Part shown: in pieces, positions 5,767 to 16,836 of the stretch
Numbering within the stretch: the first letter of the stretch is position 1
Layout: every line of letters starts with the position of its first letter
Assembly: GCA_003245525.1 (NCBI GenBank)
Contig: QKCY01000525.1
Coordinates: 1-16,836, forward strand
Length of the DNA: 16,836 nucleotides
Direction of reading: 5' to 3'
Source of the DNA: Victivallales bacterium
Lineage (GTDB): Bacteria; Verrucomicrobiota; Lentisphaeria; Oligosphaerales; Lenti-02
Program-made: the position numbers and the translations under genes
The notes under the pieces: model-generated
Told to the model about the DNA's origin: nothing
Databases searched by the model: none
The model's input: the letters and a program-made list of their open reading frames with translations, nothing else

Positions 5767-5790
5767 GTGCGGTGCTCTGCACCGCTTTTC
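5767..5790 (+). terminator. Putative rho-independent terminator downstream of mutS2
   Basis: GCGGTGC-tct-GCACCGC forms a 7-bp GC-rich stem with a 3-nt loop and is followed by TTTT at 5786-5789. It lies about 60 nt after the mutS2 stop. A second small hairpin sits just upstream at 5746-5760 (gcggcc-aaa-ggccgc). Confidence 0.45.
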
Positions 5791-5965: not shown

Positions 5966-8900
5966 CTACTTGCCCGTGAGGTGCTGGCGGAGGTCGGCGA
6001 GGAGCTGACCCTGTTCGCGCATGGCTTCCATGATCGGCAGCAGGCTTTCGAGGATGAGCACCTGGCGGGACCAGGCGCGGCCGTACTCCGCCGGGAACGT
6101 GGTCTGCACTTCGAGCGCCCCGGTCGGCTGGCTGCTTTCCGGGGGACGGAGCGCCTGGAGGGCGGTCACGAGCGGAGCGAGGTCCAGGGGCTTGCCGAGT
6201 CGGTCGCGGACTTCGCCGAGGGCGGCGGCCAGGGGGTGAAGATCGACGCTGGCGCTCTGCTTTTCGGCCAGGGCGGAGAGCGCCGCCACCACGGGGGCGA
6301 AATCCGTGGCGGGAGGACGGTTCTCGCGGGCCGATTCGATGAGGGCGGCACCGAGCCGTTTCAGCCCCGTATCGAAGCCCTGTTCCAGGGAGTTGTGGAC
6401 GTGCCCCAGATTGGCGTTGAAGGCGGAGAGCTGGGCGAGGATCTTGCCCATGTCGTCGCTGTCGTCCACGCCGGAAAGGGCCTGGCGGCGGTTGAACTCG
6501 GTCTTGATCTCCTGCCAGCGGGTGCGCTCGTCGTCCGACTGCATCCCCATCATCTCCTTGAACTTGAGGATGTTGGCCTCGGCTCCGGTGGTCAGGGTCT
6601 GGGCCTCGTTGTAGTAGTGGTCGACCACGAGCTGGGTCACCTCGGCGTCGGTCATGACCGGGAAGACCTTCTCGGCCATGCGGCACATGTTGCGGTAGGA
6701 GCCCTGGAGCTTGAAGGGCGGTTCGGTACGGTATTCGTCCTGCTGGGCGGCGGACCGGATGTACTGCTGGTTGACCCGCAATACGACCTGCTGGATGCGG
6801 CGCAGCTTGCGCAGGACGTTCTGGATGTCGTCCGCCTCCGAGACGGACCAGGAGTAGGCGAAGTCGATGCCCTCGGTGGAGCCCGCCTCCACGGCCTGGA
6901 CGAAGCGATAGAGGTCCTCGTGGCTGTGGCTGGCGATCTCCGAGAGGGTCGCGTTCGAGGTCATGGCGTTCTCGATGAAGGAGAGGGCGAAGGCGCTGGC
7001 CGCCGTCTCCGAGATGTCGCCGAGGTTGTAGGTGTCGGCGCGGTTGGCGAGCATGTCGGGAATGCGGAACTTGGCACCGGACTCGGTGTAGGGGTTGCCC
7101 GCCATGACCACGGCGACCTTCTTGCCGCGCAGGTCGTAGGTGCGGGTGACGCCCCGGTACACGCCCTCGATCTTGCGCTGGGCGTCGCACAGGCTGATGA
7201 ACTTCTGGAGGAACTCCGGGTTGCAGTGTTGGATGTCGTCCAGGTAGACCATCACGTTGTTGGCCATTTCCAGGGCGAGATTGAGCTTGTGCAACTCCTC
7301 ACGGGCGGTGGCATTGGGTGCTTCGGCCGGGTCCAGGCTGGTGACGCCGTGGCCGATGGCGGGGCCGTTGATCTTCATGAAGGCCAGCCCGAGCCGGTTG
7401 GCGATGTACTCCATGAGCGTGGTCTTGCCGTAGCCGGGCGGCGAGATGAGGAGGAGCATGCCCATCAGGTCGGTGCGCTTGCTCTCGCCCGCCACGCCCA
7501 TCTGCTTGGCGAAGTTGGCCCCCACCAGGTTCAGATAGACGTCGTTGATGAGCTTGTTGCGCACGAAGGAGCCCATGACGCGGCTCTGGAACTCGCCCAG
7601 GCGCATCTCCCCGCGGCGCTGCTCGACGACATCGGCCCGCCGCCGGGCGTAGCGCCGGAAGCGCGGCACGCGGATTTGGGCGAAGTGGCTGAGCCGGGCC
7701 AGAAAGAGATCCAGGTGCAGGCTCAGCACCCGATTCTGAATCCGGGGATGCTGGCCCAGCAGGCCCTCGATGGTGGCCAGAGTGCTGACCCGCGAGGCGT
7801 CGCGGCTGATGATGTTCCCCGCCGCGACCAGAGCCACCACCTCCCAGACCAGATGGCCGGAGTCGGCGGGTTCCCGCACCTCGACGAAAGCGCCGACCCA
7901 GTCATGGATCAGGGCGATCCGGGCGGGCACGTCGGCAACGGTGGCAATCGCCTCGGCGAACCGCTTCTCCCGGCGGGCGTCGCGCAGGGCGGTGAGGAAG
8001 CGCTGGTGCAGCTCGATGGCCAGGGCGTTGACCGTGAACTCCAGGTTCTCCTCGTCCTGCAGCTCGTGGTAGAGGTACTCGGCGGCCTGGCCCAGCATGA
8101 CCGGACTGAGGTCCAACCCCATGTGCTCGTAGAAGTGCTCGACCAGAGTGCGGATCTCGGCGACGTACTCCTGGCGCACGGGCAATTCGCCGAACAGCCG
8201 GGGCAGTTGGCCGAAGGACTGCAGCCGCGTGCGCAGTTCGGCCTTGCGGGTGGCGTCGGGGTAGAAGCACCAGAAGATGATGGCGTAGGCCCGGCACTCG
8301 GAGTCGTAGCGCAGCAGCTTGCACTCCCCGTAGAGCCGGACAAGGTGGGGCAGGATCGTGCCTGCATCGGCGTCGTGGACGCCCTTCTCGTAGCCTTCGG
8401 TGTAGAGCCCGGCGGCGAACCGGCGGACTTCGGCCAACAGGGCCGCCCCATCCTCGACCAGTTCCGTCAGACGGGTCAGGGAGAGCTCGTTCCTGCCGAG
8501 GATAGCGGCCTGGAGCATCTGGTAGGCCAGGTACTCCGACCGGTAGACCTCGGGGGTCTCGCTCACCAGTTCCTGTTCCCACAGGTCGCGGCATTCCAGC
8601 AACTCGGGATCGTCCACCCGTTCCAGGAAATCGGTGCCGGTGAGGTGGAAGAACAGGTCGCCATCGCGATAGACCGTGGTCAGTTCCAGCGGCTGGGTGT
8701 TCACCGTGAAGTGGTAGTCGCCGAAGGAGATGACATTGTCGCCGCCCTTGAAGAGGTCGAGTTTGTCGCGCAGGCGGCGGATGATCTCGTCGCGGGCGCT
8801 CTTCAGGCGTCCGGTAAGGTCGTCGGCCTTCACCGACTCGCCCATGTCGTGGAGCTTGGCGATGTTCTCGCGCAGCTTGGCCACCATCATGTCCGAGGCG

Positions 8901-11302
8901 AAGTAGGCGTTGACCTCGTCGATGCCCTTGAAGCTCTCGGCCCGGTTGATGGCCCCCTTCAGAACCCGCTCCGCGCTGGCGACCATGGTGCCGACGCGGC
9001 GCTGACGCTGCTCGTCGAGCACCTGCTTGCGGGCGGAGAAGGCGCTGTAGGCCTCCTCGCGCTTCTCGGTGAGCTGGGCGACGTATTCGTCGTAGTCGGC
9101 GAATTTCCCTTCCAGCTCCTCGATGGTGACCATGACCTTGGTGAGGAACTCGTCGCAGCGGGCGACGGAGTCGCACATGCCGATGTAGTTGGTGATGGCC
9201 TGGCTGACCAGTTTGAACTGGGCGGCGAACTCGGCGGCGGCCTCCTCCTTACCCAGGTCCCGGCGCTGGTTGCGCAGGGCGGCACGGGTGCGGTTCACCC
9301 CGGCGTAGACCTCGGTGATGGCATCGACGATCTGGGTGGTCTGGGTGGCGTCCTCGATCTCCAGGTTGTTGACCACGTCGGTCAGCAGGTCGAGGCGGGT
9401 GGCCAGTTCCTCCAGTTTGGCGGCGGTGGCATCGAGATCGACCAGTTTGGCGATGCCGGGCAGGGAATCGGCGATCTGCTGGTTTTCCTGGCGGTAGGGA
9501 TCGAGGGCGTCGGGGCGGAGCAGGAACTTGGCGCAGGCGAGAGCGAGGACTTCGGCGGCTTCGCCCAGCTTCCGGTCCAGTTCGGCGATCCGGTTCCCGT
9601 CCGCGTAGCGCAGCTCGCGCAGGCTGATGACCTGGCCCCGGCGGGTGCGCAGTTCGCCCAGGCCCTCCACGAAATCGTCGATGTTGCCCATGCGGTCGGG
9701 CACGGCATCGAGCAGGCACTCGCGGACGGCGGCTTCGCTGGCGCTGATCTGCTTCTCCGTGGCGTTCCGGAGGTTGACCACCTTCTCGAACTCGCCGACC
9801 GCCGCCACGGCGGCGGCCTTCACCTGCTGGACGGTGTCCGCGACGTTCTCCGCCTCCTCCCGGCCCAGCCAGTAGTGGCCGTCGAGCATGTTGGTGGTGG
9901 CACGGATAAGGTCGTGGTAGGTGTAGAGCGTGACCGGTTCGGCCAGGGCGAGGCGGCTGACGGCATAGCCTTCGGAGACGGCGCGGACCAGATCGCGGTT
10001 GCCGATCTTGGCCAGGAAGGGATCGCCCTTGGCCTCGGGCTGGAAATCGTCGCTACAGAAAGGCGTCTGCCAGATCTGCATCGGGTGGATGCGCTTGGGC
10101 TCGTCGTCCGGGGCGCTGAACAGCACCATGCGCCCGTCGTCGTAGAGCGAATAGCCATGGCAGAAGATCGGGTTCGCCAACTGCTTGGTAATGAGGTTGT
10201 ACTGGAACAGCAGGTGGCGCCCTTGCTCGACATGGTAGAAGATGTAGAGGAAGTCCTCGCCGTTCGGGGAGGCGATGCTCTCCAGGAAGACCATCCCCGC
10301 CACATCCTCGTCGAAGAGCCGTTCGCCGCCATCCTGGAGGTAGTAGCCCTTGGGGAAGATGATGCCGTGGCTCTCGGGCAACTCCACGCAGGCCTGGGCG
10401 ATGGCGTCCACGCGCAGGGCGGTCTGCCGCTTCTCGTTGAAGATGAAGTGCCGCCAGACCTCCTCGCGGTAGGGGCGGATCCGCAATAGGATGAGTTCGC
10501 CCACGGTGGCGTAGTGGATCGCGGCGTCGTCCAGGGTCTGGTCGGGATTGTCGACCGGCTCGGAGTAGATGCCCTCGCCGGACTCCGTGTTGTCCTCGAT
10601 CTTGATGGTCAGATCGCCCTCGATGCATTCCACGAACACCCGGTCGAGGATGTTGATGTGGGGGTGCATGCCCTGCACCTGGTCGTCGCGGGTGGTGGGA
10701 TGCCATTCGAACTGCTGCTGGGGGGGCAGTTTGTACTCGGTCTCGCCCCGGTCGTCCACATAGGTCAGCGTGTTGTCGCGGGTAATGGAGAAACGGAAGA
10801 CGCGGATCTCGTTGGCGGTGTTGCCAACCTGGAAGATCAGCAGCAGTTGTCCCGTCTTCTTGATGAACTGGAGGAAGCGGGCGTTCTTGTAGTACTTGTA
10901 GAGTTCCCCGAAGTCCTTGCGGAAGCCGCCCTGGTCCAGCAGGTCCAGCCCCGCGTTGCGGAAGCCGTTGCCGTCGAACTCATGGACGCTGAACACGTCT
11001 TCGAGCTTGGTTTCGCTCTTCAGGCCGAGGTAGACGTTGTAGCCGAAGACCAGGGAACGTCCCACCCCCGTGATGTCGCGGGGCACGCAGTTGTTCTCGG
11101 TCGGGATGCGGTCGTTGCCGGCGATCTGGCTTTCCTGGCTGCCGAAGGTGCCCTTGCGCCGGGAATTGAGCGCTTCCAGACGGCGGATCAGCTCGCCGTT
11201 GAGCCCCAGCAGTCGTTTGTGCAGGACATCGTAGGCACCGCCGCCCAGTTCGGCCGACTGCTCGTCGGGGGGGGCAGGTTGGGTTGGTTCTTGCTCGGCC
11301 AT
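5966..11302 (-). CDS. Giant (about 1,778 aa) uncharacterised protein with one dynein/MoxR-type AAA+ (AAA_5-like) ATPase module near the C-terminus, a long N-terminal region and central coiled coils
   Basis: A continuous ORF on the minus strand with normal amino-acid composition. Walker A is LLLISPPGYGKTTL (nt about 7424-7444). Walker B plus the post-Walker-B loop reads VMVYLDDIQHCNPEFLQKFISLCD (nt about 7225-7260), which matches the AAA_5 pattern hhhhDEINRAxPEVLNALLSLLDE. Sensor-1 is VAVVMAGNP and an Arg-containing element is RIPDMLANRAD. The ATG at 11300-11302 is preceded by GGAG with a 7-nt spacer. An in-frame GTG at 11314 is an alternative start. The opposite-strand ORF 5945..10489 is a G/L/V/D/A-rich antisense artefact. 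Confidence 0.8.
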   Translation of the reverse strand: MAEQEPTQPAPPDEQSAELGGGAYDVLHKRLLGLNGELIRRLEALNSRRKGTFGSQESQIAGNDRIPTENNCVPRDITGVGRSLVFGYNVYLGLKSETKLEDVFSVHEFDGNGFRNAGLDLLDQGGFRKDFGELYKYYKNARFLQFIKKTGQLLLIFQVGNTANEIRVFRFSITRDNTLTYVDDRGETEYKLPPQQQFEWHPTTRDDQVQGMHPHINILDRVFVECIEGDLTIKIEDNTESGEGIYSEPVDNPDQTLDDAAIHYATVGELILLRIRPYREEVWRHFIFNEKRQTALRVDAIAQACVELPESHGIIFPKGYYLQDGGERLFDEDVAGMVFLESIASPNGEDFLYIFYHVEQGRHLLFQYNLITKQLANPIFCHGYSLYDDGRMVLFSAPDDEPKRIHPMQIWQTPFCSDDFQPEAKGDPFLAKIGNRDLVRAVSEGYAVSRLALAEPVTLYTYHDLIRATTNMLDGHYWLGREEAENVADTVQQVKAAAVAAVGEFEKVVNLRNATEKQISASEAAVRECLLDAVPDRMGNIDDFVEGLGELRTRRGQVISLRELRYADGNRIAELDRKLGEAAEVLALACAKFLLRPDALDPYRQENQQIADSLPGIAKLVDLDATAAKLEELATRLDLLTDVVNNLEIEDATQTTQIVDAITEVYAGVNRTRAALRNQRRDLGKEEAAAEFAAQFKLVSQAITNYIGMCDSVARCDEFLTKVMVTIEELEGKFADYDEYVAQLTEKREEAYSAFSARKQVLDEQRQRRVGTMVASAERVLKGAINRAESFKGIDEVNAYFASDMMVAKLRENIAKLHDMGESVKADDLTGRLKSARDEIIRRLRDKLDLFKGGDNVISFGDYHFTVNTQPLELTTVYRDGDLFFHLTGTDFLERVDDPELLECRDLWEQELVSETPEVYRSEYLAYQMLQAAILGRNELSLTRLTELVEDGAALLAEVRRFAAGLYTEGYEKGVHDADAGTILPHLVRLYGECKLLRYDSECRAYAIIFWCFYPDATRKAELRTRLQSFGQLPRLFGELPVRQEYVAEIRTLVEHFYEHMGLDLSPVMLGQAAEYLYHELQDEENLEFTVNALAIELHQRFLTALRDARREKRFAEAIATVADVPARIALIHDWVGAFVEVREPADSGHLVWEVVALVAAGNIISRDASRVSTLATIEGLLGQHPRIQNRVLSLHLDLFLARLSHFAQIRVPRFRRYARRRADVVEQRRGEMRLGEFQSRVMGSFVRNKLINDVYLNLVGANFAKQMGVAGESKRTDLMGMLLLISPPGYGKTTLMEYIANRLGLAFMKINGPAIGHGVTSLDPAEAPNATAREELHKLNLALEMANNVMVYLDDIQHCNPEFLQKFISLCDAQRKIEGVYRGVTRTYDLRGKKVAVVMAGNPYTESGAKFRIPDMLANRADTYNLGDISETAASAFALSFIENAMTSNATLSEIASHSHEDLYRFVQAVEAGSTEGIDFAYSWSVSEADDIQNVLRKLRRIQQVVLRVNQQYIRSAAQQDEYRTEPPFKLQGSYRNMCRMAEKVFPVMTDAEVTQLVVDHYYNEAQTLTTGAEANILKFKEMMGMQSDDERTRWQEIKTEFNRRQALSGVDDSDDMGKILAQLSAFNANLGHVHNSLEQGFDTGLKRLGAALIESARENRPPATDFAPVVAALSALAEKQSASVDLHPLAAALGEVRDRLGKPLDLAPLVTALQALRPPESSQPTGALEVQTTFPAEYGRAWSRQVLILESLLPIMEAMREQGQLLADLRQHLTGK

Positions 11303-11369: not shown

Positions 11370-13451
11370 CTACTTCTTGGTCACTTGCGCGAGCAGGTCC
11401 TTGAGCTGCCCCATCACGCCTTCGCCGCCCTTGCTGGCAATCTTGGCGAGCAGGTTGGCCACGGTCAGGTTCTTCACGTCCTCGCTGCTGACGCCGGAGG
11501 TGGCGATCAGCTCGGCAAGCTGGGTGGCGATGTTGGCGCTGTCGCCCGCCACCAGCTTCTTGGCCTGGTCGCTCTTCTCCACGAAGCCGTCCACCGACTT
11601 GGCGAGACTGATGGACCGGAAGAAGTTCTCCAGGAAGGTGCCGTCGCCGCCCACGATGTCGATGTTCGCCTGGCGGACCGCTTCGCCCAGCACGCGGGCC
11701 TGGGCTTCGGCGATCTGGCGCTGGACGTCGATGCCGGCCAGTTCCACCCGCTCCTGCTTGGCCAACTGGAGCTTGAACTCCTCGTGTTCGCGGCCCACGC
11801 CGTCGAACTTCTTCATGGCGTCGGCCTTGAGGTCGATGGCCTTGGCCTCGGCTTCGCCGCTCTGCTCGATACCGAAGGCTTCCGCCTTGTGCTTCTCGAT
11901 CCCGGCATCGGCTTCGGCCTTGCCGCGCAGCACGATGGCGTTGGCCTCGGCTTCCTGCACCTTGACGTTGGCCAAACCAAGGGCGGATTCCTCGGCGATG
12001 ACGCCTTCGGCCAGCAGCTTCTTGGCCTGGGCTTCCTTCTCGGACTTGGCGAGGACGGCCGCGCCCTGCTTCTCGGCGAGCACCAGTTCGGCTTCGCCCT
12101 GCTGCTCGGCCTTGATGCGGATCGCCTCGGCCTGCCGCTGGATCTGCTCCTTCTCGGCGTCGGCCATGGTGATCTTCTCTTCGTACAGGCTCTTGGCGGC
12201 GCGCTCCTTGGACTCGGCCGCCTTGACCTCCTTGACCAGGAGCTGTTCGGCCTCGCGCTCGGCCTCGATGATCTGCGCCTTGCGCTCGCGCTCGGCCTCC
12301 ATGATACGCCGGGTGTCCTTGATGCGCTCCTCCTCCTCGGCCACGGTCTTCTCGACCATGACGCGCTCGCGGATCACGTCCTGGATGTTCTTCTTCTCGA
12401 CCTCGACCGCCTTCTCCTTCTCGATGGTCTTCAAGGTCACCAACCGCTCGCGCTCGACCACTTCGAGCTGGCGGTCGCGCTGGACGCGTTCCTCCTCGAT
12501 GGCGATGGCGCGCTGCTTGGCCTTCTCGGCGACGGCGATCTGGCGGTCCTTGTTCTCGACCGCGACCGCGACCTCCTCGTCGGTGGCCAGGGCGGCCTTC
12601 TCGGACTTCAGGCGTTCCTCTGCCTCGACCACGCGGGCGGAAGCGTTCTCGCGGGCCTGGATCTCGGCGATTTCGCGCTTCTTGCGCTCCTGGGCCTCGG
12701 CCCGCTGGCGCTCGAGCTCGGCGATGGTGGCGTCGGCCTCCACGTTCTGCTTGGTGATGACCTTGCGCTCGTTCTGCTTGGCCTCGTTGGTGGCCATGTG
12801 CTCCACGGCGGTGAGCTGGGTGATCTTGCGGATGCCCTGGCTGTCCAGGATATTCTGGTCGTCAAGGGAGGCGAGGGGGGTCTGCTCCAGGTAGTCGATG
12901 GCCACGTCTTCCAGGCGGTAGCCGTTGAGGTCCTCGCCGATCACCGTGATGATCTGCTCCTTGAAGCGCTCGCGCTCGGTGAACAGGGTAGTGAACTCCA
13001 TCTGCTTGCCGACCGTCTTCAAGGCCTCGGAGAACTTGGCCTGGAACAGCTCTTCCAGGGTGGCCTGAATCGAGGCGCGCTGGCAACCCACCGACTGGGC
13101 GACCTTGAGCACGTCCTCCTGGGTCTTGTTGACCCGGACGTAGAAGGTGACGCGGATGTCGGCGCGGATGTTGTCCTCGCAGATCAGGCCGTTGCGGCCC
13201 GACCGCTCGATCTCCATCCCCTTCACCGAGATATCCATGTACTCGGCCTTGTTGAAGATAGGAATCACCACGCCGCCAGTGAAGGTGACGGTATTGCCGC
13301 GGAAGCCGTTGATGATCAGGGCTTGTCCCTGGGCCACCTTGCGGTACATCTTCGCCACGAAGTAGATCACCGCGAAGAAGACGAAGCAGACGGCGGCGGC
13401 CCAGAGCAGGACGACTTGGTAGTAGAGGAGGGCGGGGGTGGGCAGTGGCAT
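11370..13451 (-). CDS. yqiK: Flotillin-family SPFH/band-7 protein, YqiK-like (N-terminal TM anchor, SPFH domain, long E/A-rich coiled coil)
   Basis: The N-terminus has a hydrophobic anchor LLYYQVVLLWAAAVCFVFFAVIYFV followed by AKMYRKVAQGQALIINGFRGNTVTFTGGVVIPIFNKAEY. This parallels E. coli YqiK ...ARLYRRASAEQAFVRTGLGGQKVVMSGGAIVMPIFHEI.... It is followed by about 330 aa of E/A/K/R-rich heptad-like coiled coil typical of bacterial flotillins. An AAGGAA RBS precedes the ATG at 13449-13451, and the stop is TAG at 11370-11372. Confidence 0.85.
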   Translation of the reverse strand: MPLPTPALLYYQVVLLWAAAVCFVFFAVIYFVAKMYRKVAQGQALIINGFRGNTVTFTGGVVIPIFNKAEYMDISVKGMEIERSGRNGLICEDNIRADIRVTFYVRVNKTQEDVLKVAQSVGCQRASIQATLEELFQAKFSEALKTVGKQMEFTTLFTERERFKEQIITVIGEDLNGYRLEDVAIDYLEQTPLASLDDQNILDSQGIRKITQLTAVEHMATNEAKQNERKVITKQNVEADATIAELERQRAEAQERKKREIAEIQARENASARVVEAEERLKSEKAALATDEEVAVAVENKDRQIAVAEKAKQRAIAIEEERVQRDRQLEVVERERLVTLKTIEKEKAVEVEKKNIQDVIRERVMVEKTVAEEEERIKDTRRIMEAERERKAQIIEAEREAEQLLVKEVKAAESKERAAKSLYEEKITMADAEKEQIQRQAEAIRIKAEQQGEAELVLAEKQGAAVLAKSEKEAQAKKLLAEGVIAEESALGLANVKVQEAEANAIVLRGKAEADAGIEKHKAEAFGIEQSGEAEAKAIDLKADAMKKFDGVGREHEEFKLQLAKQERVELAGIDVQRQIAEAQARVLGEAVRQANIDIVGGDGTFLENFFRSISLAKSVDGFVEKSDQAKKLVAGDSANIATQLAELIATSGVSSEDVKNLTVANLLAKIASKGGEGVMGQLKDLLAQVTKK

Positions 13452-13501: not shown

Positions 13502-14281
13502 TCAGAGTTTGCGGACTTCGTAGGAGTCGGACTCGGCATGGTATTCCACAACCACCGCCTCGTCCCGCTTGCCGAGCTTCTCCTCTTCGGGAGCCCGGAC
13601 ATCGATGGTCAGGAACGACTCGCCCACGACCATTTCGGCCTGGCCGAAGGAGGGGGTGACCCGTCCGCTGCGGATACGGCAGATCTTGCCCACCAGATGC
13701 TCGTGGCCCCGCTGGGTGTGGCGCCGGAAGAAGCGGCGCAGGGGGCGGGTGCTGATGCCGGTGAGAACGAAGGCGACGACAAAGCAGACCGCCAGCACCG
13801 CCAGGAAGAACACGATGGGCGGCAGCCAATCCCGCAGCCACGCCGGGGCGTAGCAGGTGATGGTGTAGGCCTCGATCCACATGAAGGAGATCAGCAGGCT
13901 GAAAATCAGCGTGGCAGGCACCTCGCCGAGGTTGATGAAGCCCAGCACCGCGCGCAAGGCACTGCCAGCCCCCTCGGCAGCCCCTTCCGCCGCGCCTTCG
14001 GCAGCCCCTTCTGCTGCCGCCTCTGCGGCCCCTTCCGCGACTCCCTCGGCGACTCCCTCGGCCACCCCTTCCGCAAGACCTTCGGCCAAGCCTTCGGCGG
14101 CCCCCTCCGCCACGCCTTCGGCAGCACCATCCGCCGCGCCGAAGATGCCGTCCAGGAAGTCGAGGTCCAAGGCACCAATCAGGACGACCACCCAGTAGAG
14201 CAGCATGAGCAGCATCAACAGGGTGTAGAGCAACATGGACGGACCGAAGACGAGTTGCACGAACTCTCGGATGTTGTCCAT
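13502..14281 (-). CDS. yqiJ: YqiJ/NfeD-like inner-membrane protein (flotillin partner) with an inserted AEGxA pentapeptide-repeat linker and a C-terminal OB-fold-like domain
   Basis: The N-terminal TM helix ends in LIGALDLDFLD, compared with E. coli YqiJ ...GHMLSGALDAHLDH. There are two further TM segments. The C-terminus HLVGKICRIRSGRVTPSFGQAEMVVGESFLTIDVRAPEE parallels YqiJ [39 protein letters not shown]. It sits immediately upstream of the flotillin gene with a 50-bp spacer, which is the canonical NfeD-flotillin pairing. The RBS AGGAGC lies before the ATG at 14279-14281. Confidence 0.65.
   Translation of the reverse strand: MDNIREFVQLVFGPSMLLYTLLMLLMLLYWVVVLIGALDLDFLDGIFGAADGAAEGVAEGAAEGLAEGLAEGVAEGVAEGVAEGAAEAAAEGAAEGAAEGAAEGAGSALRAVLGFINLGEVPATLIFSLLISFMWIEAYTITCYAPAWLRDWLPPIVFFLAVLAVCFVVAFVLTGISTRPLRRFFRRHTQRGHEHLVGKICRIRSGRVTPSFGQAEMVVGESFLTIDVRAPEEEKLGKRDEAVVVEYHAESDSYEVRKL
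13962..14141. repeat. In-frame 15-nt tandem repeat, about 12 units, encoding (A-E-G-x-A)n within the yqiJ-like gene
   Basis: The + strand reads ccttcggcagcccct / tccgccgcgcct / tcggcagcccct ... with 15-nt periodicity. Its minus-strand translation is GAADGAAEGVAEGAAEGLAEGLAEGVAEGVAEGVAEGAAEAAAEGAAEGAAEGAAEGAG. The antisense + ORF 13881..14198 (APSAAPSA...) is the mirror artefact of this repeat. Confidence 0.8.
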
Positions 14282-14409: not shown

Positions 14410-15750
14410 CTAGCGGACGGAAAGGTCCAGCACGCGGAGCGCGCTGGGAGCCCCCGGTTTTTCCGGTCTATCCTGAGTGTAGACGGAGAGGATGCCCTCG
14501 TTGCGCCAGCGGTCCAGGTCGAGCAGGGGCTCGCCGACCGAGATCCTGTCCGCCTGCCAGACGGTCCGCCACTCGGTCCAGCCCGTGGACTCCGAAGCGA
14601 TGGCAACGGTCAGTCGGCTGCCGTGGTCCTGCCCGTGGTAGCGGCGGTCCTCGCCTTGGCCGTAGACCACGTAGGCTGTTCCCGCATCATCGACCACGAT
14701 CTGCGGTTTGCGCCCGTAGAAGGGCAGGGGATTGTCGTGCCAGACCCCGTCCGGGTCCCGCCAATAGTGGTAGTAGCGCCAAGTGTTGAGGTCCGTGCTG
14801 GCCGTCGGGGCATCCTGTTGCTGCTGCCAGTTGATCACGTGGACCCGGCGGCGGGCATCGATCCACTGGGTGGTCGTGTTCATCTGTCCCCAGAGGTAGC
14901 GGGTGGTCTGGACGACGGTTCCCGGCGTGGCGATACTGATCCCCGTACTCTTCCCGTCCAGGACCGCGATGGTCTGCCCGGCGTTGTTGCACCAAGTGCG
15001 TCCCCGGTCGTCGCTGTAGGCGTAGCAGACGTCGTGGTTGGTGCGCAGGTCGCGGATGCCCTCGCGGGGACGCTCGCGCCAGCACCAGGTGATGTGCAGG
15101 CGATGGTTGGGACCGTAGCGGACGGGATTGGGGTACGCACTGCGGGAGGAGCTGGTCTCGTACTGTCCGGCGCGGGAGAAGAGCATGCCGAGTACCTGCC
15201 AGCCCGCCGCGCCGTATTCGGCCAGGTACCAATCCCCATCGCCGGAGGCACCAAGACGGTAGAGGAGTTGGAGCTTGCCCTCGGGCGTGGCAAAGAACTG
15301 GGGATAGGTGACCGGGTTCAGGGGCTGGCCGGGCACCAGCGCGGAGGTGGTGGCTCCGAACAGCGAGGCGTTCCACGCGAAGTCGCCGGGCCGTAGAGCC
15401 ACTTCCGGTACCGACCGGCGGTAGTGGAGCGGATGTCCGTGGTGGTCGAAGGAGAGATGGATCGTGCCATCCTGGGGACAGATGCCGATCACGGCCACGT
15501 TGTGGACATCGTCGTGATGGATGGCGTAGTCGGCGAAATGGATGGTCTCCCACGGGCTGTCGGGCAACTGCCGCCGCGCCACGGCCAGCACCCCGCCGTC
15601 CGCGAAATAGGCTGCGTATTGGCAGCCCCGGAAGGAGACCACGGCCTCCTGCTGGAAGGTCTGGCCGTTGATGCAGGTGCCAAAGGGACCGCTCGGCAGA
15701 TTCAGGGCTGCCGCGTCCACCACCGAATCGCCCACCCGTTCCACTGTCAT
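14410..15750 (-). CDS. BNR/Asp-box repeat beta-propeller protein (BNR_4-like); putative polysaccharide lyase or glycoside hydrolase
   Basis: The protein is 446 aa and contains the Asp-box YSDDRGRTW (S-x-D-x-G-x-T-W). Aromatic/His-rich propeller-like segments include HHDDVHN and HLSFDHHGHPLHY. The RBS AAGGAG sits 8 nt before the ATG at 15748-15750. It lies 24 bp downstream of the partial hydrolase gene, so the two are probably co-transcribed. Confidence 0.55.
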   Translation of the reverse strand: MTVERVGDSVVDAAALNLPSGPFGTCINGQTFQQEAVVSFRGCQYAAYFADGGVLAVARRQLPDSPWETIHFADYAIHHDDVHNVAVIGICPQDGTIHLSFDHHGHPLHYRRSVPEVALRPGDFAWNASLFGATTSALVPGQPLNPVTYPQFFATPEGKLQLLYRLGASGDGDWYLAEYGAAGWQVLGMLFSRAGQYETSSSRSAYPNPVRYGPNHRLHITWCWRERPREGIRDLRTNHDVCYAYSDDRGRTWCNNAGQTIAVLDGKSTGISIATPGTVVQTTRYLWGQMNTTTQWIDARRRVHVINWQQQQDAPTASTDLNTWRYYHYWRDPDGVWHDNPLPFYGRKPQIVVDDAGTAYVVYGQGEDRRYHGQDHGSRLTVAIASESTGWTEWRTVWQADRISVGEPLLDLDRWRNEGILSVYTQDRPEKPGAPSALRVLDLSVR

Positions 15751-15774
15751 GGGGCCGTCTCCTTATGCCCGGCG

Positions 15775-16836
15775 TTAGGGAGCGGCGACAGTCAGGATGC
15801 GGGCGAAGCGCAGGCGGACGGGACCGAGCAGGCCGGAGGGCAGCAGGGGATCGCCCGCGCGGTAGTGCTTCCAGGTGGTCCAGGTGATGCGGCCGGTGTC
15901 AGGTGGCGGCGTGTTGTTCAGGGCATCCGGCGGCCAGGACTTGAGGGCGGCACCGCCCCAGTCGCGGTAGTCGGGCTTGGCCTCGTCGCCGATGAGGCGG
16001 TTTGGCCAAAGGTTGGTGACCCGCACCTGAAGGGTGTTCATTCCCGGTTTCAGGCCGTCGGTGACGTCGACCCGGAACGGCGGCTTCCAGAGGATGCCCA
16101 GAGGCGTGCCGTTGAGGACGGGTTCGGCGATCACCTGGACCTGGCCCAGATCGAGCATGGCCTTGGTGCCGGGCTGGCAGGCTTCAGGCGGAACCGTGAA
16201 GGCCAGTTCGTAGGTGGCGGTGCCGGAGAAGTGCTGCACGCCCTCGTCGGGATGGGTGGTCCAGGAGATCAGCTTGGGGAGGGAGACTTTGGTGGGAGCC
16301 CCAAGGTTGGGGGGGAAGCGGAGCGTCCAGGGACCGGCCAATGGCACCTCGGCAGGCGGCGCGGCAGCCGTCAGTTGGCGGCTGGTGCCATCGGCAAACT
16401 GAACTTGGAAGTCGCCCTTGTCCCAGGCCACGAGATGCAGTTGTCCGTCCGCCACGGCCAGTTCGCCGGGCTGCCAGGCGGGGGCCTGGGAGAGGGGCAG
16501 TTCCAGCAAGGCGTTTTCGCCCAACGTCATCTCACCGGGCATGCCATCCACGGCGTACTCCACATGCAATTGCTTGCGGATATTGGGGGCAGGATCGCCC
16601 GCGATCTCGTTGCCGGTCCGGACCACGAGGTGACCATCGCGGATGCGCTGGCGCAGGGCTGCTTGCAGGGGGCCATCCGGAATGTCGCCGTACGCGGCGC
16701 GGCGAATGAGGAGGGTGCCTTGCTGGCCTTCCGGCGGCAGGCGGAGGGTCTGGTTCTCGCCCACACTTGCCCGCAGGGGCTTGCCGTCGAGTTCGTACTC
16801 CACCACCATCCGCTTGACGACCTGGTTTGCGGGATC
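15775..16836 (-). CDS. Glycoside hydrolase, C-terminal portion (GH2/GH106-type C-terminal jelly-roll/carbohydrate-binding domain); the 5' end lies beyond the window
   Basis: The minus-strand frame is open from the window edge to a stop at 15775-15777. The C-terminal segment DLGQVQVIAEPVLNGTPLGILWKPPFRVDVTDGLKPGMNTLQVRVTNLWPNRLIGD matches the conserved C-terminal domain seen in GH2/GH106 (alpha-L-rhamnosidase-type) hydrolases, which reads ...V.VNG..VG..W.PPYRFDIT..LK.G.N.L.I.V.N.W.NRLIGD. The family assignment is tentative. Confidence 0.5.
   Translation of the reverse strand, partial: DPANQVVKRMVVEYELDGKPLRASVGENQTLRLPPEGQQGTLLIRRAAYGDIPDGPLQAALRQRIRDGHLVVRTGNEIAGDPAPNIRKQLHVEYAVDGMPGEMTLGENALLELPLSQAPAWQPGELAVADGQLHLVAWDKGDFQVQFADGTSRQLTAAAPPAEVPLAGPWTLRFPPNLGAPTKVSLPKLISWTTHPDEGVQHFSGTATYELAFTVPPEACQPGTKAMLDLGQVQVIAEPVLNGTPLGILWKPPFRVDVTDGLKPGMNTLQVRVTNLWPNRLIGDEAKPDYRDWGGAALKSWPPDALNNTPPPDTGRITWTTWKHYRAGDPLLPSGLLGPVRLRFARILTVAAP

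Follow-up and report, generated by a model that had tools for sequence, protein, structure and literature searches.

We found that the giant ATPase encoded in a 16,836-nucleotide (nt) stretch of DNA from a Victivallales bacterium (GenBank contig QKCY01000525.1, assembly GCA_003245525.1; hereafter the window) is an orthologue in the DUF3686-DUF7902-AAA+ family, and that its gene is the last of a conserved three-gene operon. In this operon, it is preceded by a yqiJ/NfeD-like gene and by a flotillin-like gene whose product combines a transmembrane (TM) segment, an SPFH domain and a coiled coil. The open reading frame (ORF) of the ATPase lies on the minus strand at positions 5966-11302 (ATG at 11300-11302, TAG at 5966-5968) and encodes 1,778 amino acids (aa) plus the stop. 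The family goes under the name of 'DNA repair ATPase' at NCBI. Because the gene almost always follows flotillin-like and YqiJ/NfeD-like genes, a role as a membrane-stress remodelling motor is more likely than one as a DNA-repair enzyme.

A sequence-only reading of the window had described the giant protein as atypical and could not place it in a named family. This view has to be abandoned, as the match to DUF3686 (PF12458, E 7.6e-186, over the full profile, 1-448/448), together with DUF7902, places the protein in a widespread family, and it shares 44-96% identity with full-length homologues over 91-100% of the length. The family architecture comprises an N-terminal predicted β-propeller (DUF3686), a long helical arm bearing DUF7902, a conserved middle region, one MoxR/AAA_5-like module and a variable tail. 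The features typical of the family are all present in the window protein, namely the single C-terminal AAA+ module, the invariant motifs and the length (1,778 aa, compared to ~1,600-1,930). The earlier interpretation was partly supported, being right on the AAA_5/MoxR type, the propeller and the missing VWA domain. For the window, the result is mainly corrective: a giant ATPase considered unplaceable turns out to be a standard orthologue in an already catalogued family.

The single ATPase module had been located near residue 1,290, and there Pfam indeed finds one AAA+ module in the whole protein. Its MoxR/AAA_5-like α/β core spans aa ~1250-1430 (7013-7555; minus strand, like all domains and motifs of the giant protein below). 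Walker A, PPGYGKTT (aa 1288-1295, 7418-7441), has invariant G, K and T; Walker B, VYLDDIQH (aa 1352-1359, 7226-7249), is invariant with D-D in place of D-E and is followed by the loop CNPEFLQKFISLCD at aa 1360-1373. Sensor 1, AGNP (aa 1401-1404, 7091-7102), contains the invariant N1403. These four motifs stand where the earlier reading had quoted them. Its probable Arg finger corresponds to R1421, an invariant residue in LANRAD (7034-7051) that is assigned this probable role from its position after sensor 1. To these we can add R1537 in QGSYRNM (6686-6706), probably the sensor-2 arginine, within an invariant L-Q-G-S-Y-R-N-M. It belongs to the helical lid (aa ~1431-1600, 6503-7012, delimited by the helices of an AlphaFold2 model), which carries an insertion of ~50 aa. 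In an alignment of 86 homologues, K1293, T1294, D1355, D1356, N1403, R1421 and R1537 are all invariant. Therefore, the AAA+ site is genuine and under selection, and not a chance P-loop.

The assignment of this module to the MoxR/AAA_5 type is supported by its predicted fold and by its Pfam matches. AlphaFold2, which was run on the two end segments of the giant protein with the 86-sequence alignment, gives a module whose closest fold is that of MoxR, midasin or dynein. A pre-sensor-1 β-hairpin (aa 1377-1390, 7133-7174) is assigned by DSSP in this model, its two strands (aa 1377-1382 and 1385-1390) lying after helix α3 and before the sensor-1 strand. At the helix-2 insert position, a conserved 14-residue loop (aa ~1317-1330) is modelled with a high predicted local distance difference test score (pLDDT), and DSSP assigns no hairpin to it. 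By sequence, AAA_5 (PF07728) is matched at 24.4 bits over profile positions 2-125/139, a small margin over the cut-off of 22, and in 13/13 family members (best E 1.2e-7). AAA (PF00004) scores higher, at 30.2 bits, but only over profile positions 1-72/131, and NCBIfam returns nothing more than P-loop noise for the giant protein. No STAND NTPase profile with C-terminal sensor repeats is matched, which sets the protein apart from STAND/NACHT/NB-ARC NTPases. No solved structure of any relative was retrieved from the PDB, either with the full protein or with the 86-sequence profile. In agreement with the earlier reading, no VWA domain is matched by Pfam in the giant protein; likewise, no VWA partner gene is found among the conserved families of 80 related neighbourhoods.

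Outside the motor, the DUF3686 domain occupies aa 37-477 (9872-11194). In the AlphaFold2 model, an N-terminal helix (aa 22-53) is followed by ~27 β-strands at aa 59-412, an arrangement consistent with a roughly seven-bladed β-propeller, while helices at aa 428-499 pack with the N-terminal helix as a helical bundle. The sequence-only reading had thus correctly seen this region as β-rich and as a candidate propeller or sensor domain, although its range of residues 100-480 takes in part of the helical bundle. Among the motifs it had listed there, LLFQYNL (aa 364-370) and YSLYDDGR (aa 384-391) are in place, whereas 'FxYV' is not literally present, the nearest string being FGYNV at aa 86-90. The following arm (aa ~500-850) is helical and includes DUF7902 (aa 598-681, 9260-9511; PF25472, E 1.9e-25), which Pfam finds in 13/13 family members. 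A coiled coil at aa 500-800 is plausible given the low Pro/Gly content, the high charge, the presence of DUF7902 and the label used in the literature. A crude heptad score marked only aa 699-754 of the arm and also missed the coiled coil of the flotillin-like protein, and it was discarded as evidence.

The middle region (aa ~850-1240, 7583-8755) is defined by invariant alignment columns and has no Pfam match; its conserved motifs include F865-V-N868, H886..G889-T890 and Y971..G974-H976-D977. A search for internal repeats with hhalign in aa 480-1245 and in the tail gave none (best probability 9.7%). The region after the ATPase, previously taken as ~340 helical residues, is indeed helical; about half of it (~170 aa), though, is the AAA+ lid with sensor 2, and the tail proper is restricted to aa 1601-1778 (5969-6502), where conservation is poor and pLDDT ranges from 37 to 83. 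Within the tail, at aa ~1655-1715 (~6160-6340), three similar Ala/Leu-rich motifs are found (APVVAALSAL, HPLAAALGEV and APLVTALQAL), which could be short partner-binding helices or mere low-complexity sequence. The giant protein contains no hydrophobic stretch long enough for a TM helix in a TM scan, and we therefore predict that it is cytosolic.

The family is large and widely spread. A search of 5.8 billion proteins at E <= 1e-10 matched more than 6,224 clusters. The 120 best matches all share the same Pfam set, those apparently complete being ~1,650-1,900 aa long, and among the matches listed the closest are Lentisphaeria and Victivallales proteins from metagenome-assembled genomes (MAGs), at 96%, 82% and 69% identity. 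Those that carry a name in the source databases are labelled 'DNA repair ATPase', 'AAA family ATPase' or 'MoxR-like ATPase'. When the N-terminal 500 aa were used as the query of an exhaustive phmmer search against 1.84 billion 50%-identity representatives, 714 matches were obtained, 532 of them at E <= 1e-10. Except in a few of the 150 matches listed, the DUF3686 domain is N-terminal, and apparently full-length proteins are mostly ~1,600-1,930 aa long, even at 30% identity, so that the architecture with an N-terminal propeller is effectively the sole one of the family. When one genome per species was scanned, the family was detected in at least 585 species, at 42-60% identity to the window protein. 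The hosts belong to Lentisphaerota, Planctomycetota, Verrucomicrobiota, Kiritimatiellota, Bacteroidota, Myxococcota, Desulfobacterota, Gammaproteobacteria (Pseudomonas, Xenorhabdus, Marinibactrum), Actinomycetota, Clostridia, Acidobacteriota and Omnitrophota. None of 50,697 phage records and 13 of 72,556 plasmid records, mostly megaplasmids or chromids, match the giant protein, and an origin from phages or mobile elements was rejected on these counts.

Directly upstream of the giant ORF, at a distance of 67 nt, lies the flotillin-like gene (11370-13451, minus strand; 693 aa). The encoded protein carries a single N-terminal TM segment (aa 5-37), beyond which a divergent SPFH/Band-7 domain leads into a long coiled coil rich in Ala, Glu and Lys. 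The similarity to known flotillins is low: NCBIfam FloT is matched weakly (E 1e-4), the window copy falls under the Pfam Band_7 threshold, which 4/28 orthologues pass (best E 7e-14), and the family profile retrieves the SPFH protein QmcA from the PDB at E 0.0085. RefSeq annotates an orthologue as 'SPFH domain-containing protein'. Since basic residues follow the single TM segment, the bulk of the protein should face the cytoplasm. Another 50 nt separate the flotillin-like gene from the end of the YqiJ/YuaF-like gene (short NfeD-like, DUF1449; 13502-14281, minus strand; 259 aa), which encodes a protein with multiple TM segments in a TM scan, an (AEGx)n linker and a soluble domain at the C-terminus. 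YqiJ_N gives E 0.12 for the window copy and is matched by 4/24 orthologues (best E 3.6e-8), one orthologue matches NfeD, and the RefSeq orthologue is named 'DUF1449 family protein'. Imperfect 12/24/36-nt repeats at 13966-14140 (minus strand) encode the (A-E-G-x)n linker, at aa ~48-105, between the first and the later TM segments. FliH and serine-rich NCBIfam matches of this protein were dismissed as spurious, coming from the low-complexity linker.

The arrangement of these genes is strongly conserved. A flotillin-like gene stands directly upstream of the ATPase gene on the same strand in 73 of the 80 related loci, with a median gap of 146 nt, and five of the remaining seven are interrupted by a contig end. 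In 63/80 loci, the flotillin-like gene is itself preceded by a YqiJ-like one. No conserved downstream gene was found across the 80 loci. Subsets of these loci carry additional genes upstream. A homologue of PspA/IM30 is encoded in 16 (Bacteroidota and Pseudomonas); 10 loci have a gene for a CesT/YbjN-like chaperone, 10 have one for an HTH-S24 (LexA-like) regulator that is transcribed divergently, and five encode an HKD/PLD hydrolase. These identities are borne out by RefSeq, which in Hymenobacter lists a LexA-family regulator, a 'molecular chaperone Tir' and a 'PspA/IM30 family protein', followed by a 'DUF1449 family protein', a hypothetical protein (flotillin-like) and the 'DNA repair ATPase'. 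A long operon is also carried by the well-studied environmental megaplasmid pQBR103 of Pseudomonas fluorescens SBW25 (NC_009444.1, 85.4-104.4 kb), where genes for PspA/IM30, rhomboid, DUF2491, DUF350, DUF1190 and a glutathionylspermidine-synthase-like protein precede those for a 217-aa hypothetical protein, an 'SPFH domain-containing protein' and a 'DNA repair ATPase'. The 217-aa protein is a putative YqiJ-like protein by its position and size. This megaplasmid would offer a convenient genetic system for tests on the family.

Both the architecture and the operon have already been published as a comparative-genomics prediction and are not new here. Ravi et al. (mSystems 2024; PMC11237479) described CesT/Tir-PspA operons with three further genes, including a β-propeller, coiled-coil and AAA+ ATPase, the other linked genes being YqiJ/YuaF and Band-7/flotillin, with a PLD gene also present in some Proteobacteria. 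According to the same study, abbreviated operons (flotillin, YqiJ/YuaF and sometimes the ATPase) are more widely distributed. Our Bacteroidota and Pseudomonas loci match this long form (PspA, CesT-like, HTH-S24, PLD), and the neighbourhood of Dokdonia donghaensis (ANH61663.1) in their Table S3 has an order identical to that of the Bacteroidota loci here. The window instead corresponds to their 'abbreviated operon', as it contains no PspA, CesT/Tir or PLD gene. Their study includes neither a structural classification of the AAA+ module nor experiments.

The pair of genes upstream of the ATPase has the same order and domain types as E. coli YqiJ-YqiK, B. subtilis YuaF-FloT (NfeD2-flotillin) and Shewanella SO1376-SO1377 (PMC2636767; PMC1468410). 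These, however, are two-gene units without an ATPase, the Shewanella SO1377 unit stopping at a terminator (PMC1468410), and the flotillin-like proteins encoded beside the ATPase belong to a divergent subgroup, most of whose members stay under the Pfam Band_7 threshold.

SPFH and ESCRT-III scaffolds are known to be paired with AAA+ proteins, as in HflK/C with FtsH, prohibitin with the m-AAA protease and Snf7 with Vps4. We lean, with little more than even confidence, towards a model in which the giant ATPase would form a cytosolic AAA+ ring docked on the flotillin/NfeD assembly and would use ATP to remodel the scaffold or its clients under stress. By analogy with MoxR ATPases, the AAA+ module would assemble as a ring, and the propeller-tipped helical arms would stand in for the VWA/MIDAS adaptor of ordinary members of that group. 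Through these arms, the motor would be docked on the flotillin/NfeD assembly at its cytoplasmic face and, in the longer versions of the operon, could be docked on PspA/IM30 polymers too. ATP binding and hydrolysis may then assemble, disassemble or otherwise remodel this scaffold beneath the membrane, or the clients that it holds, when the cell responds to envelope or membrane stress. A more specific version of this model is tentative, and we would regard it as possible but doubtful: a homo-hexameric MoxR-like ring, with six propeller-tipped arms gripping flotillin/NfeD and, where encoded, the ESCRT-III-like PspA, might be a dedicated machine for the assembly and disassembly of flotillin cages. 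We know of no energy-dependent regulator of flotillins. If true, this version would make the family a bacterial functional counterpart of Vps4 in the ESCRT-III system and the first energy-consuming regulator for any flotillin.

Known systems resemble this model in part. MoxR ATPases (CbbQ, NorQ, RavA; Pfam AAA_5) are stand-alone proteins of ~250-500 aa that have a VWA/MIDAS partner, whereas the module described here follows ~1,250 aa of propeller and arm, comes with no VWA domain or gene, and differs in its Walker B D-D, in the modelled helix-2 insert loop and in the ~50-aa lid insertion. Midasin (Rea1/Mdn1) and dynein heavy chains concatenate six AAA+ modules, in one chain, while the giant protein has one. 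Therefore, any ring it forms must be homo-oligomeric. Its binding domain would be the N-terminal propeller, a role that falls to a C-terminal MIDAS domain or to the microtubule-binding tip of a stalk in those proteins. In HflK/C-FtsH and in prohibitin with the m-AAA protease, an SPFH scaffold is coupled to an AAA+ protein, a coupling to which the near-invariant operon points here. FtsH, however, is TM-anchored, of the classical clade and equipped with a protease domain, while the giant ATPase appears soluble and MoxR-like and has no protease; moreover, the HflK/C cage is periplasmic, while the SPFH partner here is predicted to face the cytoplasm.

Several observations weigh against our model. 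Contact of the ATPase with the flotillin-like protein is suggested solely by gene linkage, and in L039 (a Cytophagaceae MAG) and L042 (a Desulfobacteraceae MAG), where 10 kb upstream of the ATPase gene are available, a flotillin-like gene is genuinely missing. In both of them, the YqiJ-like gene is likewise not beside the ATPase gene; the partners may be encoded elsewhere or lost. The clade assignment of the module depends on predicted structure, as sequence similarity to solved AAA+ proteins in the PDB (RuvB, p97) is confined to its P-loop/β2 segment, and the helix-2 insert typical of MoxR proteins is a loop, not a hairpin, in the AlphaFold2 model. Furthermore, Walker B reads D-D, not D-E, and the β2-α2 loop (IGHGVTS) has no aromatic pore-loop residue. 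For these last two reasons, the module may work as a slow switch and not as a processive unfoldase. Additionally, a literature search on DUF3686, PF12458, DUF7902, flotillin/SPFH with ATPase and flotillin with MoxR found no functional study, and papers on SPFH evolution (PMC2636767), on SPFH proteins of Pseudomonas aeruginosa (PMC13086221) and on Shewanella SO1377 (PMC1468410) do not mention the ATPase.

The D-D Walker B and the missing pore-loop aromatic residue are the core of a different explanation, in which the protein would not be a motor at all and ATP binding, with hydrolysis slowed by the D-D motif, would toggle the oligomerisation of the arms, thereby nucleating or stabilising flotillin and PspA assemblies, in analogy with AAA+ switches of the DnaA/ORC type. 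DnaA, an initiator-type switch ATPase, has a similar DDIQF motif. The invariance of D-D-I-Q in Walker B would fit such a switch, as would the lack of a pore-loop aromatic residue, and the very long arm with its propeller suggests scaffolding; nevertheless, we consider it decidedly improbable. Slightly better placed, although still unlikely in our opinion, is quality control of membrane proteins. Here, the ring would thread and unfold, or extract, damaged or mis-assembled membrane proteins corralled by the flotillin/NfeD cage and pass them to other proteases, as a protease-less analogue of FtsH in HflK/C, the target being the clients and not the scaffold. The recurrent pairing of SPFH scaffolds with AAA+ machines and the operon linkage speak for this explanation exactly as they do for scaffold remodelling, and the complete and invariant nucleotide-site motifs agree with it as well. 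Moreover, a rhomboid protease is encoded in the long pQBR103 operon and a LexA/S24-type regulator-protease adjoins the Bacteroidota versions.

A role in anti-phage defence or in another conflict system is unlikely, and we give it only a slim chance. The propeller would then sense infection and the flotillin/YqiJ pair would act as a membrane-disrupting effector. Giant NTPases with sensor domains are indeed frequent among defence systems, a few megaplasmids such as pQBR103 carry the operon, and some proteobacterial versions include the HKD/PLD hydrolase (five loci here; PMC11237479). However, PADLOC-DB v2, which covers BREX, DISARM and other systems, gives matches at the level of the P-loop only (IetA, E 1.3e-3, 16 bits; TRIP13, E 0.011), a result that also agrees with the earlier distinction from BREX ATPases. 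The phage and plasmid counts given above likewise argue against defence, the genes around the operon in the window are housekeeping or glycan genes with no sign of a defence island, and the core operon contains no nuclease, TIR or protease effector. The family also evolves slowly, with 42-47% identity across phyla and only a few hundred 50%-identity clusters among the 1.84 billion representatives, unlike fast-diversifying defence genes. As for the database name, it would imply an SMC/Rad50/RecN-like coiled-coil ATPase working on DNA, perhaps with MutS2, and to this we attach almost no credence. The name derives support from the Pfam text for DUF3686 ('ATPase involved in DNA repair') and from the NCBI label, from the long helical region, from weak RuvB_N matches and from the MutS2 gene that adjoins the giant gene in the window. 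The module is nonetheless AAA+ and not ABC/SMC, as the earlier reading had also held: it runs contiguously from Walker A to sensor 2, Walker A and B are 64 aa apart in one C-terminal domain, there is no signature motif and no split head, and neither Pfam nor NCBIfam gives SMC, RecN or AAA_23 matches. The likeness to RuvB is limited to the P-loop segment (23.5 bits, below the cut-off of 27), no DNA-binding or nuclease domain was found by Pfam, NCBIfam or structure searches, MutS2 is convergent and adjacent in 0/80 related loci, and the conserved partners are membrane proteins.

The name 'DNA repair ATPase' is thus unsupported here and contradicted by the membrane-protein context, which had previously been overlooked. 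This family bears on the assembly and turnover of bacterial flotillin/SPFH scaffolds and on their coupling to envelope-stress responses. The ATPase, a strongly conserved AAA+ protein of 200 kDa whose gene is tied to a flotillin gene in one operon across at least 10 phyla, is an obvious experimental entry point, and the family is a candidate for connecting flotillins, NfeD/YqiJ and PspA with an AAA+ motor. This opening for experiments was already visible from the published comparative genomics.

The neighbours of the operon in the window are MutS2, AsnB, GT2, BNR_4 and GH-like genes. The MutS2 gene (2771/3299-5704, plus strand), which encodes MutS_V, MSSS SH3 and Smr domains, is convergent on the giant gene, and the 261-nt gap between the two contains a hairpin at 5769-5785. 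A link between MutS2 and the ATPase was rejected, given the convergent orientation and the missing adjacency in related loci; the proximity of the two genes could reinforce the misleading 'DNA repair' label. Upstream of the operon and on the same (minus) strand, a BNR_4 gene (446 aa) and a GH2-N-like/GH106-related gene occupy 14410-16809. Their order is kept in the 96%-identical relative, whose contig shows the same succession of BNR_4, YqiJ-like, flotillin-like and giant ORF, but not in other phyla, and they are probably an unrelated glycan-degradation unit. Since the G+C content of the window is 62-68%, many spurious long ORFs are found, among them a shadow ORF of 1,514 aa that lies opposite the giant gene, on the plus strand. 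Finally, a near-perfect 24-nt tandem repeat, TCCAGTATTCCACCATTCCATCAT, is present at 1292-1391 in 4.2 copies with 98% matches, between the GT2 glycosyltransferase gene (end at 1234) and the asparagine-synthase gene (start at 1407).

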